NCBI GenBank assembly: GCA_951406725.2
Contig: OX597822.1
Span: 107,942,001-108,006,000, forward strand
Reading direction: 5' to 3'
Length of the DNA stretch: 64,000 nucleotides
Source: Octopus vulgaris
Taxonomy: Eukaryota
Shown here: piece by piece, positions 7,611 to 55,607 of the stretch
How the letters are laid out: each line of letters starts with the position of its first letter
Numbering within the stretch: the stretch's first letter is position 1
The notes under the pieces: model-generated
Seen by the model: only the letters and a program-made list of their open reading frames with translations
What the model was told of the DNA's origin: nothing
Databases searched by the model: none
Translations under genes and position numbers: made by a program

Positions 7611-9991
7611 TAGTAAAAGGGATATTGTATAGTATTTTGTACAATTGATTAATTTCAATCCATCTAAATAATAATACTTCTTTCTTTTATGAAGTAGATG
7701 ACTAATATATTATTTCCTAATAAATGGCAGCCATTTCATAATATCCAACTACAGAGTATTATGTCACATAAAATGTTCCTACGTATGCCTTTTGTTTGCT
7801 AAATTTAATATTCCTATATTTCAAAGTCTTCTGAACTTCGGCAAAGTGATAATCAGAGATATGAATATTAACATTTTACGTTCAAATGCATCCTTTTCCC
7901 TGCATATTTAGTTTTAAAGTTTCCTTTTTCTTGTTTACACACATACATGCAGTTGTGCACGCACATAGACACACAAACTCACACATAGACACACAGCCAC
8001 ACAGCCACACAGCCACACACACATACACACATAGACACACAGGCACACAGCCACAAACATATACACACATAGACACAGAGACACACACAATGCTGTTGAA
8101 AAAGCGATAGAGGATAGATACTGAAGGTATATGTCGTCTGATACCGTAAAAAAGAATTACGGGTATACATAGCGTGATTATCAGTTTAACCGTCCGTCAT
8201 TCTCTACATACATTGTAATAGTCTTACAAAGCAATTTTACTTCTTCTAATTTTCAACCACATCACAAGAATATCCTTTGCAGAAAAAAAAAAGGCTTTGT
8301 TTATCTGATTACCCCCTAAGGTACGTAGAACAATACGTATTTAAGTTGAACATTCAAAAGAAGATCACTGCTGGAATCTCGTTAGACAGAACATAACGGT
8401 GTGATTATGTAGCAACCACTGTAGGAATCGTAGGACTGAGATGTATACTTTAGCCCGAGGAAATATGCCAATATACTACAAATTATTTCAGGAGGTGTTA
8501 AATGCAGACGAGACGATACGTATATAGTATGAATGATATATTCTTAAATAAATATACTATTTTTAGAAGAAAGATAGTAATATGAACACATATTATATAG
8601 ACTCAACTGCAATTATTGGCAATTCATTTGTATTTAATTTGAATAACTTCGGGTGATTTTATTAGTATATGTCTGGCTTTGTAATGAATATTGAAGGTTA
8701 TAAGTCCTCGATATAATACTTAACCGTTTGTTGATTATCAGACATTCATATAAACATCTAGTTCAGTGAACTTGGTTGTCTATATGACGTCGTTCAGACT
8801 GCCACTCAAAGCCAAGCAATTTGCCTCAAACTCCAAAATTATGTACTCGTTGATGTGCAACCTCATAAAGGAAAGCAATTTTATCACGACCTGAACACCG
8901 TTCATTAAATATATTCTGGACACAGGCTACAACAAATATTTTTATTCTCTTGGAAGTATTTATTTTTTTTAAGAAGCAAGAAATAAGTCTACGGATGGCA
9001 ACAATTTTCCTAAGTTGTTCAAATTGTTATTTTGACTTCATGTACTTGAGAAAACTGATTTGTGGATGCATTAGACTTTTACTACTCAAAAATACAGATT
9101 ACTTGCAACAACAGACACAGCCAGCAATGGCATCAGATTTCCCAAATATCTCTCATAGGGTGAAGAATATCGATTCAGAATTTCCTGTAGATTGAAAGCA
9201 TGGTATTGAATTGCAATCTCAGCTGCAGGATATAACTGTCTCTTATAATCCCTAATGAGAAATTAAACAATATTATTTATCATCGCGTAAGATTATTGTC
9301 TGTCACTGAATGTTTGATCCTACTTAGCAGTGTAATGTCCCAAGTATTTAAAATCTTCCGCTCTATTGCTTCTCATTTATCATCCCAATGATTAAGAATG
9401 CTTTAATATGATTCTCTATTCTAACGTTAAAAAATTATACATCCTGACGAGCGATGACTGTCAGTATTGAAGCAGCAGTAATTGATTTAATATAAAAAGA
9501 ACACCGAATCTATCTCTCCAAACAATACCGCATGCTTAGAAAAATACACGCTTAAATAGGTGGAAATATTTATGGTACCGGCATAGATGTATGTGATCAT
9601 TTATTCAAAGGGCGTAAGAAATATGATAGATGATCATCAGCAATCATTTATTTATTCTTAAATCACGGAAGGTAACATTTGAAATGCCACCAGAACTGAA
9701 ACCACTCAATTAATGATTAAGCGCGTGACTATAATTTCAGAGAACATATGTATGGTGGTTATTTAGTCCTCATGTATAGTCGGACCACCTCTTGTACTTT
9801 TACATTAGATCCATCATGGTGTTTGATGTGGCTTTTTAAAACCAGACATTGTATTGAAAACACACCCATAGATTCAGACCAGCAAGAGCACCAAATAAGT
9901 TCTGATAGCTGTGGATCTTACTATTGTTGTCTTCGGAGGCCACCGTTAGATTTGCAGACTTTATGGCACTCACAGCTTGAAAGGTATGCAC

Positions 9992-10072
<81 letters not shown>

Positions 10073-10518
10073 CATATTTATACGTAAGCAATCATAAATA
10101 AGGGCAAAAGGAATCCAATTTCTATACCAATATGCTGAGAAATAGACTTTATATCGTCAATCACCACGTACAATATTTTCCACTATAAATAAGCAGCATG
10201 TTGAAAATGAGGAAAGCAAGCTAACAGAATTTTTTAAAAGTTTCGTTATCACCGAATCGGACCGATTTCTGGATTATACCAAAAGGACTTTTCCTTCGTC
10301 AGCGGAGAACACGGTAACAAAAAAATGGGATACTTACATATACCCATGGAAAAAAACAGATGCAAAGTCATGAATACGTTTACGTACCTGAATATATCCA
10401 AATAGAAATTCTGTAGCAAGCCCCAATCACCACATACAGTATTTTTCACTATAGATACACAGCGTCTTGAAAACGAAGAAAGCAAGGTAACAGAAATTTT
10501 GAAAAGTTTCGTTTATGG

Positions 10519-10988
10519 TGCTCGTTATTATTCGTGAGAGGGGAGGTAATTGTTCCTTTGGGTGGGGGTGGGGGATAAATAGATATAGAAAACGTAACAA
10601 CTAGTGTTGTGAGATGAAATATTTAGAATGATGTGTATGTGAACATGAATTGAAATATATACATAACCAAAGCTGGTTATGCGTTCATACTTAATCGTTT
10701 TCTGTATTTTTCGATGAATAAATGTTCTTTATTTAAACGTTGTTGTATAGAAATTGTTTCTTAGGACTGATAGATGGGGAAAACTGTTAAGTTTGGTTGG
10801 ATATTAACTGCACACCTCTCTATGAACGCATAACCGATTTTGATCTCAGTAGAGATTTTAATTCATGTTTGCATACACATCATTGTAAATATTTCATATT
10901 ACTACTTCGGTTTCTGAGTTTTTGTATATTTATTTACTCCTCCCCAAAAATGAACAATTACCTCCCCTGTCCCGAATAATAACGACCC
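10519..10988. mobile_element. MITE-like element with ~35 bp terminal inverted repeats
   Basis: tcgttattattcgtgagaggggaggtaattgttc (~10522-10555) is inverted relative to gaacaattacctcccctgtcccgaataataacga (~10952-10985); interior non-coding. Confidence 0.7.
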
Positions 10989-12098: not shown

Positions 12099-12190
12099 TA
12101 CATACACGCACACATACGCACAGACACACACACACACACACGCACGCAACACACGCACGCATACACGCACGCATATATATATATATATAT

Positions 12191-13782
12191 ATTGATCAAA
12201 ATAAAAACATGATGCGAAGGATTCAGCGGTACATATGTTTCTGGCCTTTATTAGACAGATTTATAACAATGCATAATGTATGTCTGTGGCCTTCTTCAGC
12301 CGCGCACAACAGCTTCCACAAAGACATGTGTTACATCAAAAATTCTTGGTTGGGGATGCAAATACTCTCATTCGCGTACGACATAATGCGGCAGCAGCAT
12401 AGAATTGAAGCGTCCATCTCTTTCTTCTCTCAATGTAGAATGAGGAAATTTGGATGTTGAAGTAATGTAAATAAATAAATACATATATAGACGTGAAGAT
12501 GGAGGGGCGAGAATTCAGGACGAGGGATAAAAAATGTATAAAAAGTGTAAGTATAGAAAAATATAAAAATGTAGAGTATAAAGATATAAAGGGATATAAG
12601 GAGATGTAAAGGGGGTATAAAGAATATAAAGAAATATAAAGAAATATAAATGAATGTAAAGGCATAAGGTTATAAAGTAAAAATAGAAATAGAAATAAAA
12701 GTAAAAAGTAAAAAAATAAAAATAGGAATAAACATGATAAAAATGTAAAAAAATATAAAGATAAGCGATGTATAGATGTTACGGACCAAACATGGTGGTC
12801 AGGAGATTGATAAAATTTAGTTGTAGAAGTTTTGGGTGTCAATAAATCAACAGTGTCGTCTGGGGACCTAGTGTGTTGTAAATCAGAGCTGTTGAGCGTT
12901 TAATCTAGTTCTTTGAATTAATTGGTCATCTTGTACTTACATACCATCATGGATACATACACCCATATACACGCGTACATATACGCGCGCATACACGGCT
13001 CCAAGCCTATAAGCATACACGCGCACTCACGTGTAAACATGTACATAAACACACATACACCCACACGCACGCGCACTCACGTGTAAACATGTACATAAAC
13101 ACACATACACCCACACGCACGCGCGTACATATACATACATACAACAGAATATCCGCATGTACACACGGACATTATACGTGTACACACCCATATATACATA
13201 CGTGCGCCGATCCTTACATACACATACACATATGCCCACGCTTCCAGGTTTAGATATAAGATATTAAAGGATGTATATAAGAACGTATGTAAAGAATCAC
13301 GCACTCACGTCTACACGTGCACGCACACACGGCTGTGTGTCCATATGTGCGTGCACATATACACTTACATACACACACAGAAACATACGCGCATATGGGT
13401 ATAGCTATAAGATATTAAAAGATGTATACAAATAGGTGTAAACATATGAATATAAGAAAACATGTAAAACAATGTAAGGAAATACGGGGTATGTACATCC
13501 AGGCGTAGATGTTTACTCGTACATATGTACACATATGTATACGTATACATACGTACACGGACGCTCGTATAATCATAAAGCCGATCCATAGGTAAGTAAA
13601 TAAGGGATAAGCAAAAAAAAAAATAGACATATATAGAGATATAAAGCGATAAGTTAGGGGTAAGAATGAGGGTAAGGGTAAAAATTAGAAATAAAAGTAA
13701 GAAATACAATATAAAATAAGAAATACAATGTAAAAGTTAGAAATGAAATATAAAAATTATAAAAATTATAAGAATTAAGATA
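12191..13782 (-). repeat. Left inverted arm (inverted pLTR copy) with an internal 50 bp tandem duplication at 13021-13120
   Basis: Reverse complement of 15804-17357; mirrored ORF translations (12336..12842- vs 16696..17118+). Confidence 0.95.
12226..12303 (-). ncRNA. Type I hammerhead ribozyme (PLE pLTR, left arm)
   Basis: Minus strand gcgg-CTGAAGA-a-ggcc...ggcc-a-GAAA-catatg-TA-ccgc: stem I gcgg/ccgc, stem II ggcc/ggcc, palindromic stem III, GUA site. Confidence 0.75.
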
Positions 13783-13783
13783 C

Positions 13784-15199
13784 CCCACCAACAATAGGAG
13801 TAAACTAGAAAGAATTAGGAAAAAGATCAGGCTTTTTTTCAAATCCTTCAATCTTAAACTAGAATTTATGACCAATACTAAAATAGTAAACTTCTTAGAT
13901 GTTACGTTAGACTTGAATAAGCACCTTCACCACCCGTATAGGAAACCCGAAGAAACTACCAAATACATCCATACCTCTTCCAACCATCCACCCTGTATAA
14001 TTAGCACCACGGTCCAAGCCATCTCAGACAGACTTACAAAACTATCCTCTAACAGAGAAATTTTCAATAATCACGCACAACACTACAACCAGGCTCTCTA
14101 TAGTGCCGGGTATAACCAGAGAATATCATATGTAGACCACCCGGGAACGTCCGTCGGCCATAAAACTCCCAATTATAATCGAACTCCGCACTCAACTCAC
14201 ACTAGCGATAATTCTAATTTAAACTCCAAACAACGTATAGGAAATAGGCGAACTAATTGAATAGCACACAATAGTAACCCTCCCGACGAGAGCAATATAG
14301 ATCCTATTAGAAGAAATAGAAGGGATAATAGTAGATTACGCAAATATATATCGTTCAACATACCTTACAACTTAGAAGTTAGGGGTAAGTTATGTAAGAA
14401 AATATTCTCTATCATTTCCAACAACTTCCCACCCACCCATAAGTATAGAAGTATCTTCTCCAACAAAACCATTAGGATTTCCTACTCTATCCTGCCCAAC
14501 ATGAGCTGCCTCATAGCTAAACATAACTATATTAATATTAGAACAGCTAGATCAAGAGCAAGCTATAGCGACCAACAGAACCTCCCTCATCCAGATAGTA
14601 GACAATATAATCAGACTGGCAGCCATACTACCCAAACAGTTAGTAATAACACCCGCCAACACAACAGAGGAAATACTACACCCATCAACAACCAGGAGGA
14701 TATCAACGCCCCCACTCGTATTGCAACAACTCCGCCTGGGATTAGCAGCACACGACCGAATAATGCAATGTAATGCAACTGCAGATGTGCATCAGAGTAC
14801 CCGCTACAGGGCGCATGTAGGGCGAAAAACGTAATATATTCATGTGAGGTGAGTACCCAGTTTAACACACTCACCTACATAGGTTGCTCAACCTCCTGGA
14901 AATCCAGATACTACAACCACCGGTCCTCGCTGAAACACAGACATAAGGCTAACAGCACCTCCCTTTCTAAAAAGATTTGGGAATTAAAAGACAAATGCAT
15001 AGGCTTCAAACTCAGGTGGTCCATCATCGGATCAGCTGCACCTTATTTAAATAATAGAGCAGGATGCCAACTATGTTGTGTAGAACTCCTGAACATCTTG
15101 AAATTCAAAGACAAACACAATCTTATTAACAAAAGGTCAGAGTTCAAATCATCCTGTATACACAAACTTATTAACACTTTCAAATACTACAAAGCTTAG
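13784..15199 (+). pseudogene. PLE polyprotein C-terminal half (RT thumb, linker, Cys motif, GIY-YIG endonuclease)
   Basis: Single frame with two stops (14258 TGA, 14771 TAA): VNFLDVTLDL..PYRKP..YIHTSSNHPP; ISYSILPNM..IAKHN; CNCR..YPLQGAC; NVIYSC..TYIG..WKSRYYNH..STSLSKKIWELK..CQLC..NKRSE. Confidence 0.92.
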
Positions 15200-15336
15200 G
15201 TTATTATACCAACTCCCTCATGCAATTTCCTCCCACCAGGTGCAACCTGTCGGCTCCAGCACATCCCGCTTTCCTATATGTGCGTGTATATGTGTATGTG
15301 TGTGCGTATATATATGTATGTGCACATATGTGTACG

Positions 15337-15378
<42 letters not shown>

Positions 15379-15803
15379 GGGATGTGGGGGGTGTGTATGT
15401 GCATATATGTTTCCCTGCATTTTCCTCCTATATATACACATTTTGTCTCCCATATATATCTTTTTTTCCCTACATATTTCTTCTCCTACACCCATATTCT
15501 TCCTATATAGTCTCTTTATTTCCCTATATCTATACCCTTTCACATTTCTAACTCGGATGTTGAACGCACACCGCCAAACTCCACTTCCCACCCTTCCAAA
15601 TTTTCAGTTCCCCCCGCCCGCCCCTACGTGGGCACCTTTACCACACACCTCTAACTTTCAACCACCTTCATCTCATGTTAAAATTTACCAAATTATATTT
15701 TTATTTTATTTTTATTTTTATTTTTACTTTTATTTTTACTTTTATTTTGCTTTATCCTATTCTACTTCGCTTTACCTTTATTCTCATTTTTATTTTCATC
15801 CCT

Positions 15804-17357
15804 TATCTTAATTCTTATAATTTTTATAATTTTTATATTTCATTTCTAACTTTTACATTGTATTTCTTATTTTATATTGTATTTATTACTTTTATTTCTA
15901 ATTTTTACCCTTACCCTCATTCTTACCCCTAACTTATCGCTTTATATCTCTATATATGTCTATTTTTGTTTTTTTGCTTATCCCTTATTTACTTACCTAT
16001 GGATCGGCTTTATGATTATACGAGCGTCCGTGTACGTATGTATACGTATACATATGTGTACATATGTACGAGTAAACATCTACGTCTGGATGTACATACC
16101 CCGTATTTCTTTACATTGTTTTACATGTTTTCTTATATTCATATGTTTACACCTATTTGTATACATCTTTTAATATATTATAGCTATACCCATATGCGCG
16201 TATGTTTCTGTGTGTGTATGTAAGTGTATGTGTGCACGCACATATGGACACACAGCCGTGTGTGCGTGCACGTGTAGACGTGAGTGCGTGATTCTTTACA
16301 TACGTTCTTATATACATCCTTTAATATCTTATATCTAAACCTGGAAGCATGGGCAAATGTGTATGTGTATGTAAGGATGGGCGCACGTATGTATATATGG
16401 GTGTGTACACGTATAATGTCCGTGTGTACATGCGGATATTCTGTTGTATGTATGTATATGTACGCGCGTGCGTGTGAGTGTATGTGTGTTTATGTACATC
16501 TTTAAACGTGAGTGCGCGTGTATGCTTATAGGCTTGGAGCCGTGTATGCGCGCGTATATGTACGCGTGTATATGGGTGTATGTATCCATGATGGTATGTA
16601 TGTACAAGATGACCAATTAATTCAAAGAACTAGATTAAACGCTCAACAGCTCTGATTTACAACACACTAGGTCCCCAGACGACACTGTTGATTTATTGAC
16701 ACCCAAAACTTCTACAACTAAATTTTATCAATCTCCTGACCACCATGTTTGGTCCGTAACCTCTATACATCCCTTATCTTTATATTTTTTTACATTTTTA
16801 TCATGTTTATTCCTACTTTTATTTTTTTACTTTTTACTTTTATTTCTATTTCTATTTTTACTTTATAACCTTATGCCTTTACATTCATTTATATTTCTTT
16901 ATATTTCTTTATATTTCTTTATATTCTTTATACCCCCTTTACATCTCCTTATATCCCTTTATATCTTTATACTCTACATTTTTATATTTTTCTATACTTA
17001 CACTTTTTATACATTTTTTATCCCTCGTCCTGAATTCTCGCCCCTCCATCTTCACGTCTATATATGTATTTATTTATTTACATTACTTCAACATCCAAAT
17101 TTCCTCATTCTACATTGAGAGAAGAAAGAGATGGACGCTTCAATTCTATGCTGCTGCCGCATTATGTCGTACGCGAATGAGAGTATTTGCATCCCCAACC
17201 AAGAATTTTTGATGTAACACATGTCCTTGTGGAAGCTGTTGTGCGCGGCTGAAGAAGGCCACAGACATACATTATGCATTGTTATAAATCTGTCTAATAA
17301 AGGCCCGAAACATATGTACCACTGAATCCTTCGCATCATGTTTTTATTTTGATCAAT
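15804..17357 (+). repeat. Right arm (sense 3' UTR/pLTR)
   Basis: Inverted partner of 12191-13782. Confidence 0.95.
17245..17322 (+). ncRNA. Type I hammerhead ribozyme (PLE pLTR, right arm)
   Basis: gcgg-CTGAAGA-aggcc...ggccc-GAAA-catatg-TA-ccac; one stem I mismatch relative to the left-arm copy. Confidence 0.7.
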
Positions 17358-17427
17358 TTACTCCACCACCTACACCACCAAACGGTATACACAGGTGCTT
17401 ATAATTATCAAGTACTCACCCCGAATT

Positions 17428-17461
<34 letters not shown>

Positions 17462-17463
<2 letters not shown>

Positions 17464-17620
17464 CCAGAATAAGCACGTAAATGTGAAACAAGGTGGGAAA
17501 AATAGTACTCGAATACTGGAGGTTATATAATTAAGATGCAAAAACATCACAAAAAACTGTTGCTCAGAGTTTCACGTTCCGTTTATCGGACAAGGGAAAC
17601 GTGAAACGCTGAGTATCAAG
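17462..17620 (-). mobile_element. Foldback mini-element, family A (degenerate hammerhead)
   Basis: Reverse complement of the 53600-53727 end; internal inversion ctcagagtttcacgttcc / ggaaacgtgaaacgctgag. Confidence 0.7.
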
Positions 17621-17830
17621 TGGGGAAAATGCTGCGAATAATAACACAAACAAGTAACAATGCAGCCTGTATATATTTTAGTTATACTGTTTAATGTATC
17701 GATAGTTTCATTTTCATGCGTATATTTACCATGCGTTTCCTTTGTGGAATTATACACGCTTTGTGTTTGTTCGTTTTATATTTGCATTTGCAGCTTTTTG
17801 TGAAATTCCATCCTCGTATAACTTCTGTGT

Positions 17831-28624: not shown

Positions 28625-28866
28625 CACGAAGCCGTAAGGATGCAGTGAGCCTCAGCCTATCTAGAAATGAGCGCTAAATAGACTAATGCTCACTGCATCC
28701 TTAAGGCTTCGTCCTAATTTTATATTTTATAGCTTATAATGCTATTAAACTGGTGAACGGCCCATGTTACTGCTGTTAATAGTATCAAATTCAAAATATT
28801 TCCACAGATGGTATTGATAATAGTAGCATCCTATTTAGAATGTAAACATCCAAATGAATTTGCTCA
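28622..28866. mobile_element. Asymmetric foldback insert between (TA)n tracts (25 bp arms)
   Basis: acgaagccgtaaggatgcagtgagc / gctcactgcatccttaaggcttcgt, plus ~150 bp extension on the right. Confidence 0.7.
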
Positions 28867-28891
28867 TATATATATATATATATATATATAA

Positions 28892-29808
28892 ACGTCCTCG
28901 CCGAACCAAAACTCCGGAAGAAAATCAAAATTTTCCGATAGGGACAGTCGGACTCTTAGGCGAATTGTTAGAAAGGATCACAAAATTACATCTCCCAAAA
29001 TTACTGCACAGTTTATGGACCACTTCGAGAACCCAGTTTTTTTTTCCCAAAATCTGCTCGCCGAGGGCTGCTATCAGAAAATCACTACTTTCAAAACCAA
29101 ACGCTGAAAAGCTTTTAGAATGGAGTAAAAACCTACGGAACTAGTCCCTAGAGTAGTGGAAGAATGTTATTTACTCACAGGAGTCATCCGCTACCTTATT
29201 TCCGATCACCGGACGAGTATACGTGTGGATACAGCCAAAAGAAGCATTTGACCCAGACTGCCTTCTTCTAACTGTTAAATATGGAGGAGGATCTCTGATG
29301 ATCTGGGGGAGGGGAGCTATATCTTGGAAATCTGCCGGCCCAGTCGCTTCCCTTCATGGCAAAATTAATAGTCAAGTCTATTTAAGCGTTTTATCTGATC
29401 AAATTCAGTTGTTGAACTGTTTCCAGAGGGAAACGCAATCTTTCAGGGTAATAATACACCAATTCACACAGCTAAAGTTGTTAATGAATAGCATGAGGAA
29501 CATTCTAGTGAAGTTAAACAACTTATCTGGCCACCACTGCCCCCAGACATCAATATTATTAAACATTTGTGGTGCATTTTAGAAAAACATGCAAAGAGTC
29601 CATATCCTCCACCATTATTACAACAAGAACTAGAGACTGTATTAGCTGAAGAATAGAGAAAAATTACTTTGGAAACAATTCAAACTTTGTAGGAGCCCAT
29701 GCTTCGTAGAATTCAAGCTTTAATTACTGCCAAAGGTGCCCTACCCCATATTAAAATAAATTTGTTTGAAGTTTTATGGTGTTTCCATTATTTTGTCCAA
29801 TCCCTTTA
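28892..29808 (+). mobile_element. Tc1-like transposase relic (DDE region) with 3' TIR
   Basis: DCLLLTVKYGGGSLMIWG, IFQGNNTPIHTAK, WPPLPPDINIIKHLW; ends gtttccattattttgtccaatccct. Confidence 0.88.
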
Positions 29809-35760: not shown

Positions 35761-36298
35761 ACTCGGTAGTCAAGATAAAACTCTGAGTTTCAGATGCCGA
35801 AGTGGAAATCCACAACACCATCTCTTCGGTTATCTGGCTATTTGAAAACGCTATGAAAAAATACCGTTAAATAAAGGGAAATTACTCTGTTATAACTCTG
35901 CTTGCCTGCGTACTTATACATCGCTCGCATTTTTCGTCATAAAAATTATATAAAAATACATAAAAAATATATAAAAATATATAAAAATATACAAATTCTT
36001 CTTGGGACATAACATAGAAAGCATGTTCTATCTGTTTTCTTTAGGGAACCAAAAACGTAACAGAAATTTAGTCACATGTGGGCATGATCCGAAAAGCTCT
36101 GTCCTTGTATTTAGACATGTAGTAGGGTCTAAGCTGCTTTTCCAGATAAGCCATCTCTCCATGTCGCATCGGCATCTGAAACTCAGAGTTTTATCTTGAC
36201 TACCGAGTAAAGTAACATATTATTGTATAGATAAATTTCCTCTATTTACATAATATTGAGGTCTCTTTCTTTCTTTTGTCATCTTACCGTTTTATCAA
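35761..36298 (+). mobile_element. Foldback mini-element, family C (40 bp perfect inverted repeats plus tail)
   Basis: 35761-35800 is the exact reverse complement of 36169-36208; ~90 bp tail ends in (TA)n. Confidence 0.8.
35773..35835 (-). ncRNA. Type I hammerhead ribozyme, CCGAAGA core variant
   Basis: agataa-CCGAAGA-gatg...catc-t-GAAA-ctcagag-TT-ttatct; 6 bp stem I, 4 bp stem II with internal hairpin. Confidence 0.7.
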
Positions 36299-38214: not shown

Positions 38215-38308
38215 TCTCTGCTGATGAGGCAAGCCAGTTGTAAATACATTTAATTTAATTTAATTAATTTGTTTACAAAGTTTGATGAAACTATGCATAG
38301 TCCAGAGA
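38215..38308 (+). ncRNA. Type I hammerhead ribozyme with canonical core
   Basis: tctctg-CTGATGA-[long stem II with caagc/gtttg and ttgtaaata/tgtttacaa]-GAAA-ctatgcatag-TC-cagaga; perfect 6 bp stem I, palindromic stem III, GUC site. Confidence 0.82.
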
Positions 38309-51192: not shown

Positions 51193-51701
51193 ATAGTAAA
51201 GACTATTCTCCAACATAATGTGGCAGTCCTGGTTGGGACGAGTGCTACTGTTGTTTAGCGCTAGCAAACAACCTTTCTAGCTGGCGATACAACACTATAT
51301 CCGTGTCCTTATATTTTTGAAGAGGGGAGTTCAGCACAAAACAATATCTGCGGACCGCCGCGGTTTCTGTGCTATTTCCTTTCTCCGCACCGAATAACTG
51401 CTGGACTAAGTTGCCGCTCCTAAATTCCCGTTAAAAAATACATAGAATTTTGAAAGTGACATACAAACACTGATGTCATAAACATAAATATTATTATTTC
51501 TAAATCTCTCAAAAGAGATATACAGTAGAAGTACTTCAAAGTAGATATTGCTTTGTGCAAAGTGGGAATGCTAAACTCCTCTGTTCGGAAATATGAGAAC
51601 ACAGATATTGTTTCGGTATTTCACTGGAGACCGTATTTCCTGGGGATCAAAAAAAAGCAGTATTCGTCCCAAATTGGACTACCATGATATGTTGCAAATT
51701 T

Positions 51702-53473: not shown

Positions 53474-53489
53474 TAGATAGATATATATA

Positions 53490-53723
53490 CTTTATTTAAA
53501 GAAGCAGAAAATTCAACAAAACCTGTTACTCTGAGTTTCACGTTGCCGTTCGTTGGACAGTTTTTCCTAGAATCTAGCAAAAATTGTCCGACGAAGGGCA
53601 ACGTGAAACTCAGAGTAACAGGTTTTGTTAAATTTTCTGCTGCTTTAAATAAAGCATATTACTCTACCACTGGTATTTGAGTACTCTTTTTTCCACCTTG
53701 TTTCACATTTATGTGTTTACTCC

Positions 53724-53727
<4 letters not shown>
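53490..53727 (+). mobile_element. Foldback mini-element, family A, with a hammerhead in each arm
   Basis: 53490-53570 inverted relative to 53574-53654, then ~70 bp tail; (TA)n on both sides; + strand ttgt-CCGACGA-agggcaacgt-GAAA-ctcagag-TA-acag at 53584-53621. Confidence 0.85.
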
Positions 53728-55302: not shown

Positions 55303-55429
<127 letters not shown>

Positions 55430-55603
55430 TTTATTTAAAGCAGCAGAAAATTCAACAAAACCTGTTACTCTGAGTTTCTCGTTGCCGTTCATCGGACAGT
55501 TTTTTGCTAGAATGGAACCGATATGTCAATTCTATCCAGACTATTACAAACGCTACACCTTTAAAAAATGGACTTGTTTGATTGGCCCTTTAGAAATTAC
55601 TCC

Positions 55604-55607
<4 letters not shown>
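55430..55607. mobile_element. Family A mini-element: inverted hammerhead segment plus terminal tactccggta
   Basis: Minus strand 55461-55505 aaactgt-CCGATGA-acggcaacga-GAAA-ctcagag-TA-acagg; same left breakpoint as 53490; (TA)n on both sides. Confidence 0.8.

Follow-up and report, generated by a model that had tools for sequence, protein, structure and literature searches.

An inherited cytosine at core position 4 of hammerhead motifs in an abundant repeat subfamily, likely of Penelope type, in Octopus vulgaris

What are two opposed hammerhead-shaped motifs doing in one octopus foldback, and why does neither carry the uridine expected in the hammerhead core? U4 gives the hammerhead uridine turn its name, is near-universal and is built into search descriptors. 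In the 64-kb stretch of Octopus vulgaris DNA analysed here (the window), the initial annotation had singled out a pair of inverted arms in which both motifs, described as opposed, read C at this position, and had regarded C4 as ancestral rather than as decay.

The arms are inverted copies of 82 nt each with a spacer of 1 nt, and lie between two (TA)n tracts (Table 1); as annotated, each holds a hammerhead-shaped motif, which reads outward. Counted with the TA flank, they extend to 87 nt (53485-53571 and 53573-53659) at 92% complementarity. An assembly artefact or duplicated read, considered as the origin of the foldback, is excluded because the arms are unlike at 6 of 81 positions. The 71-nt tail past the right arm is common to the family copy at 17.5 kb (87% over 55 nt). 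The foldback is ordinary architecture of Penelope-like retroelements (PLEs), a short inverted copy plus a tailed copy, and the locus is likely a single insertion of a PLE end, with head-to-head fusion inside (TA)n. Published PLE insertions (PMC8557442, PMC3846280, PMC11167929) are alike in having an inverted 5′-truncated copy beside a direct copy, a one-sided tail and AT-rich or (TA)n targets; they differ in tails of 30-40 nt, as opposed to ~71 and ~90 nt here, where no ORF is tied to the family of the foldback (family A).

Transcripts of the foldback are predicted to fold, from either strand, into one long hairpin (-126.1 and -123.6 kcal/mol) with about 82 bp of double-stranded RNA, and all eight hammerhead pairs checked on both strands received a predicted probability of 0.0. 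Because each transcript has just one motif in the sense orientation, the two are unable to form a double hammerhead together. Given the single hairpin and the private lesions of both motifs, the locus is probably inert, and the modelled folds suggest the same for either motif within it. Protein searches with the translated foldback returned nothing, or two tandem-repeat artefacts, and no true homologue, so that neither frame is supported as coding; the CCGAUGA form of the core includes an AUG.

Table 1. Positions within the window of the foldback, of the other family A copies and of a second family with C4.
Feature	Position	Strand	Details
Left arm, short inverted family A end	53490..53571	-	tail-less, adjoins (TA)n
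Left hammerhead motif	53523..53560	-	core CCAACGA, C3 at 53556, C4, G5A at 53554
Right arm, family A end	53573..53654	+	hammerhead motif and AATAAA (53648-53653)
Right hammerhead motif	53584..53621	+	core CCGACGA, C3 at 53588, C4 at 53589
One-sided tail	53655..53725	+	71 nt, past AATAAA, then (TA)n
Family A long copy	55429..55596	-	core CCGAUGA, C3 at 55495, ~92 nt native upstream sequence
Final 9 nt of tail	55597..55605	+	then (TA)n; direct half of inverted arrangement
Old tailed family A copy	17462..17593	-	core CCGAUAA
Diverged inverted piece	17594..17621	+	joined inside ribozyme motif
Second-family C4 hammerhead motif	35773..35835	-	core CCGAAGA, C3 at 35829, predicted site GUU
Second-family element	35762..36297		TA-rich flanks, inverted ends 52 nt, 92%

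The 55.5-kb copy matches the plan of the foldback, a tail-less inverted piece being followed by 9 nt of tail; 55501-55596 is native upstream sequence of family A. For the 17.5-kb copy the motif had been placed at 17555-17603. It is present, but its real span runs from 17593 to 17553 on the minus strand, and 17594-17621 form a separate, diverged inverted piece. (TA)n borders the 53.5-kb and 55.5-kb copies at both ends and the 17.5-kb copy at its tail end. Family A is likely of Penelope type, an assignment that rests on architecture because no family A ORF was found; none with RT and GIY-YIG lies adjacent to it in the window. Inverted or partial-tandem pseudo-LTR arrangements with a one-sided tail occur at 53490-53725, 55429-55605 and 35762-36297, the insertion sites are AT-rich or (TA)n, and the family is dispersed and abundant in contigs from runs of four organisms. 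Non-LTR retrozymes are described in one report (10.64898/2026.07.22.740005) as tandem head-to-tail units with a hammerhead in each, whereas the copies in the window are dispersed or inverted.

The motifs support the PLE-type hammerhead fold that had been assigned to them. The three helices follow in type I order, with a stem I of 4 bp (6 bp in the second family), helix II and a palindromic stem III, and, as in PLE minimal hammerheads, this short palindrome is able to pair between two copies. Stem III, drawn in the annotation as a hairpin with a 1-nt loop, is unable to close in that form: it is the 9-nt palindrome ACUCAGAGU, whose predicted self-duplex has -7.4 kcal/mol and which forms no stable hairpin alone. 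Pairing between molecules, with no lone hairpin, is the dimer signature of PLE hammerheads (PMC4209133, PMC6765202). PLE hammerheads whose stem III is small and palindromic are credited with cleaving as dimers by way of that stem (Lunse et al., RNA Biol 14:1499, as summarised in PMC6765202), and family A is alike in the palindrome. The GNRA-capped stem II proposed earlier stands as to its GCAA loop and two steady C-G/G-C pairs, flanked by an A and a variable base, but its third pair is not kept, since U, A or G may precede GAAA. The first helix II pair G10.1-C11.1, present in the second family, is absent in family A, which starts A-U, A-A, A-G or C-G.

The canonical core CUGANGA...GAAA...UH is departed from by C4 in all family A copies of the window and by G5A as well in the left arm, whose motif otherwise has helix II CG-GCAA-CG, the palindrome ACUCAGAGU and a predicted GUA site. 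C4 is the sole core change in the 55495 copy, and the motifs at 53588 and 35829 have no core change besides it. Private lesions were correctly noted in the copies: next to G5A on the left, in the right arm helix II is broken by a C>G at 53596 and stem I carries a C>U at 53584, and the 17.5-kb copy has G8A, a loop II deletion, U16.1C and a U at the palindrome centre, with C4 kept.

A hammerhead descriptor permitting C or U at position 4 gave 4 matches in the window versus 0.025 per dinucleotide-shuffled window (200 shuffles), and none in 20,000 shuffles of the 55429-55504 unit. It matches the 55495 copy and misses both foldback arms, which are lesioned. Rfam yielded only hairpin-type matches and no hammerhead among the matches listed (150 of 284), and pattern scans of metagenome contigs, viral contigs and prokaryote genomes found nothing. 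Under unconstrained folding, single family A motifs were no better than shuffles (z -0.65 to 0.85), a test that says little because two copies of the canonical U4 motif behaved likewise (z 0.51 and 0.28).

Set against the PLE minimal type I hammerheads surveyed by Cervera and de la Pena 2014 (PMC4209133), the motifs are alike in type I topology, short stem I, palindromic stem III, AU-rich flanks, an unpaired A after A9 and the occurrence of opposite-strand pairs, and one listed example has an extra base before GAAA, as here. The published helix II is usually longer and starts with G10.1-C11.1, in contrast to 2-3 bp with a C-G or A-U start in family A; the second family, with its G-C start, resembles it. 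At position 4 they differ: 56 of 56 animal motifs in the alignment of that survey read CUGA or UUGA, with U4, and C4 is not among them. Not every one of the 56 is PLE-tied; 33 accessions or fewer are, Table S1 giving 31. The absence of C4 is partly by design, because the descriptor of the survey required the core.

C4 was read, as annotated, in all four family A copies of the window, with cores CCAACGA (53556, minus), CCGACGA (53588, plus), CCGATGA (55495, minus) and CCGATAA (17589, minus). Contigs from 4 of 24 listed runs, one each for organisms A-D, were placed on 55429-55607 (5751, 472, 1173 and 1252 contigs, of which the depth does not measure copy number). The ribozyme and poly(A) part is covered ~10x as deeply as the upstream part, and the divergence of loose ends sets in immediately past CTAG, from which we conclude that a short form dominates; depth also falls, with loose ends, at 55596-55597. 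The short form starts directly after CTAG at the foot of stem I. This CTAG could be a splice acceptor, given that the D. virilis Penelope intron terminates at helix I (PMC4209133).

U4, which would be G>A at 55494, has no row at 2% or above in the contigs of any of the four runs, in a variant table that is not a full census, the reference carrying C4 and rare variants being dropped by contigs, and that omits a T>A at 55479 present in three of the four window copies. N7, three bases from position 4, varies at 3-19%. Since no such U4 row appears in four organisms' contigs, C4 is inherited in the abundant short form. Loose ends at 55501, however, read CUGAUGA in three of the four runs (X1, 14 contigs; X2, 3; X4, 4; clipping favours such mismatched ends), and they share the same upstream sequence. 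The X1 end is linked to a GGAA loop (agreement 0.93, 14 contigs), and the X2 end to a changed helix II and a C at the palindrome centre (3 contigs), X2 being the only U4 variant readable to the palindrome. C4 therefore marks a subfamily and not the whole family. The claim of ancestry accordingly holds for inheritance, which the four window copies, the missing U4 row and a second family with the same base all favour, and is not supported for family A at large; judged from these sequences, C4 is an inherited allele of the abundant subfamily.

Four sites are variable in every run, namely N7, the centre of the palindrome, the mismatch in stem I and the base that precedes GAAA. Each is a tolerant position (post hoc P of 0.002-0.016 across the 49-nt ribozyme span, row 55502 with 2 contigs in one run being left out). 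That variation sits at tolerant positions hints that the fold is maintained and says nothing on cutting.

The second family carries C4 on the basis of a single copy. Its motif at 35829 has a long helix II with a G-C start, a 6-bp stem I and the palindrome ACUCAGAGU of family A; stems I and II differ between the two families, C4 and the palindrome are the same, and there is an identical stretch of 13 bases that starts one nucleotide ahead of GAAA and takes in the palindrome. The element bears a ~90-nt tail on its right end only, and the motif at that end is missing the core's 5′ half, in place of which stands a differing 5′ half with a short rearranged stretch. Over its 64 kb the window holds five or more hammerhead families, and Rfam has none of them among the matches listed. 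Three are U4 families (12299, 10302 and 38221) with palindromes unlike ACUCAGAGU, and other hammerhead families of the window also carry the extra base before GAAA. The motif with C3 at 12299 (minus) belongs to a PLE remnant at 12188-17360 with inverted flanks of 1.6 kb (95%), both of which hold a canonical U4 hammerhead with a long helix II and the palindrome ACAUAUGU, the second in decayed form near 17249 (plus). At 13772-15199 the remnant has ORF pieces of RT-thumb and GIY-YIG-like type with a cysteine-rich linker, and looks Neptune-like. Pfam and homologue searches gave no name to the ORF remnant near the 12299 hammerhead, for which an Atlas lead pointed to GIY-YIG (11% of one cluster). 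U4 motifs at 10250-10305 (minus) and 38215-38307 (plus) have palindromic stems III of 11 nt and 12 nt, and a 90-nt direct repeat at 10158/10424 lies beside the 10302 motif. At 51350-51390 and 7730-7785 (both minus), GAAA is followed by a long palindrome and preceded by a core that has decayed; these may be old hammerheads. The window also contains an inverted repeat pair at 10522-10689 and 10821-10985 (78% over 170 nt) and, at 28839-29582 (plus), broken ORFs with no Pfam match at E 0.01, presumably Tc1/mariner transposase-like.

Why would an abundant subfamily keep C4? When the 55495 and 35829 motifs are folded with U4, a helix is predicted between the core and the UCAG of the palindrome, and C4 breaks it. 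Compared with U4, C4 makes the predicted active monomer fold more accessible for 55495 in 18 of 20 choices of flank and for 35829 in 20 of 20. The predicted advantage depends on the palindrome centre, appearing in 18 of 18 combinations with A (mean 2.2 kcal/mol), in 4 of 18 with C and in 7 of 18 with U; gains span 0.1-2.7 kcal/mol. Family A has no steady gain of this kind in the dimer ensemble, where C4 does better for just 10 of 20 flank choices (55495) and for 5 of 18 combinations with a central A. For both foldback arms U4 is predicted to fold better than C4, as it is for the three U4 families of the window with other palindromes, and all motifs checked have a predicted active fold that is 4-8 kcal/mol less stable than the ensemble. 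The link of U4 with a central C is carried by the 3 contigs of X2.

On these grounds we give roughly even chances to the explanation that C4 is tolerated because it stops the core from pairing with the stem III palindrome, the locus itself being one PLE-end insertion whose motifs are inert here. As other PLEs do, the element would copy its RNA at TA repeats through target-primed reverse transcription accompanied by an inversion, and a single-orientation or tandem transcript could form a double hammerhead through the palindrome, which might cut weakly after GUA, probably aided by protein; in the 55.5-kb copy the predicted site falls between 55466 and 55465 on the minus strand. With U4 and a central A, CUGA is predicted to pair with UCAG and trap the monomer; with C4, some catalytic rate would be lost and the trap removed. 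A bolder version, which we advance tentatively and hold to be somewhat unlikely, is that a PLE hammerhead clade fixed U4C as a compensatory change, such that position 4 and the palindrome centre never pair (C4 with A or U, U4 with C) and rate is traded for escape from the trap; such hammerheads would be dimer-active, very abundant in these genomes and invisible to any CUGANGA descriptor.

C4 could instead mean lost function, fixed in the master copy behind a non-autonomous PLE derivative whose fold is carried along or kept for protein binding with no useful cutting, a reading that we find credible while inclining against it. In one study (PMC11167929), PLE insertion in vitro was unaffected by hammerhead mutants, making cleavage dispensable there, and cutting by that ribozyme depended on protein. 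A mutational scan found little activity when single bases of the CUGA turn were changed (PMC9901934). U4 members do occur, joined to the longer form; the ~10x depth belongs to the C4-rich short form, and helix II has two steady pairs only, without G10.1-C11.1. Against such a loss, two families with unrelated stems I and II keep all other core bases together with C4, the common variants avoid core and paired positions, and the folding gain from C4 varies with the palindrome centre in the direction seen.

It is unlikely, in our estimate, that C4 is old and common to a PLE clade comprising both families, with the U4 members reverting through CpG deamination, C4 standing in a CpG. Both families do share C4 and the 13 identical bases, some lesions are of CpG type (G5A in the left arm, C/U at N7), and CpG observed/expected in the window is 0.855 versus 1.04 for GpC. 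The U4 loose ends nevertheless come with linked differences, the GGAA loop of X1 and the helix II and centre changes of X2, which indicate subfamilies and not scattered decay. This alternative concerns the order of events and is compatible with tolerance of C4 through escape from core pairing.

That the element is a DNA-transposon MITE or foldback transposon with a TA target, resembling a hammerhead by chance, is very improbable: inverted ends, TA flanks, the lack of a found ORF and of an Rfam hammerhead among the matches listed agree with it, but there are no symmetric fixed ends, the tail is one-sided, the inner junctions and inversion point vary between copies, the descriptor failed to match any of the 20,000 shuffles, canonical CUGAUGA members occur in the same family, and the design recurs with U4 in other families of the window, one of which adjoins an ORF remnant that is RT/GIY-YIG-like. 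Least tenable is the opposed pair as a functional device, for example two ribozymes releasing or regulating a hairpin RNA, for although a transcript would yield the ~82-bp duplex, each strand has one sense motif fully paired with and buried by the other arm, the private changes in both motifs are disabling or destabilising, PLE insertion usually yields this arrangement, and opposite-strand hammerheads 100-700 bp apart are already described in Schistosoma and a bracovirus PLE (PMC4209133).

The same substitution occurs naturally in a viroid hammerhead (Ambros and Flores 1998, as cited in PMC3088659), with much reduced activity in vitro in a viroid that is still infectious; there it is one variant of a full viroid ribozyme, as against a fixed allele in abundant genomic families. 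No report of U4C in PLE hammerheads came from the literature searched, outside which Lunse et al. and its supplements lie and may bear on the point. The foldback, the hammerhead type and, from one viroid variant, U4C are already known; new, within that literature, is an inherited C4, as read from sequence, in PLE-type families.

If whole PLE families indeed run on C4, hammerheads would be undercounted in genome censuses. The C4 and U4 subfamilies of one family would offer a natural test of whether PLE hammerheads must cut at all, and if C4 is dead, a very successful PLE derivative would have spread without an active ribozyme.
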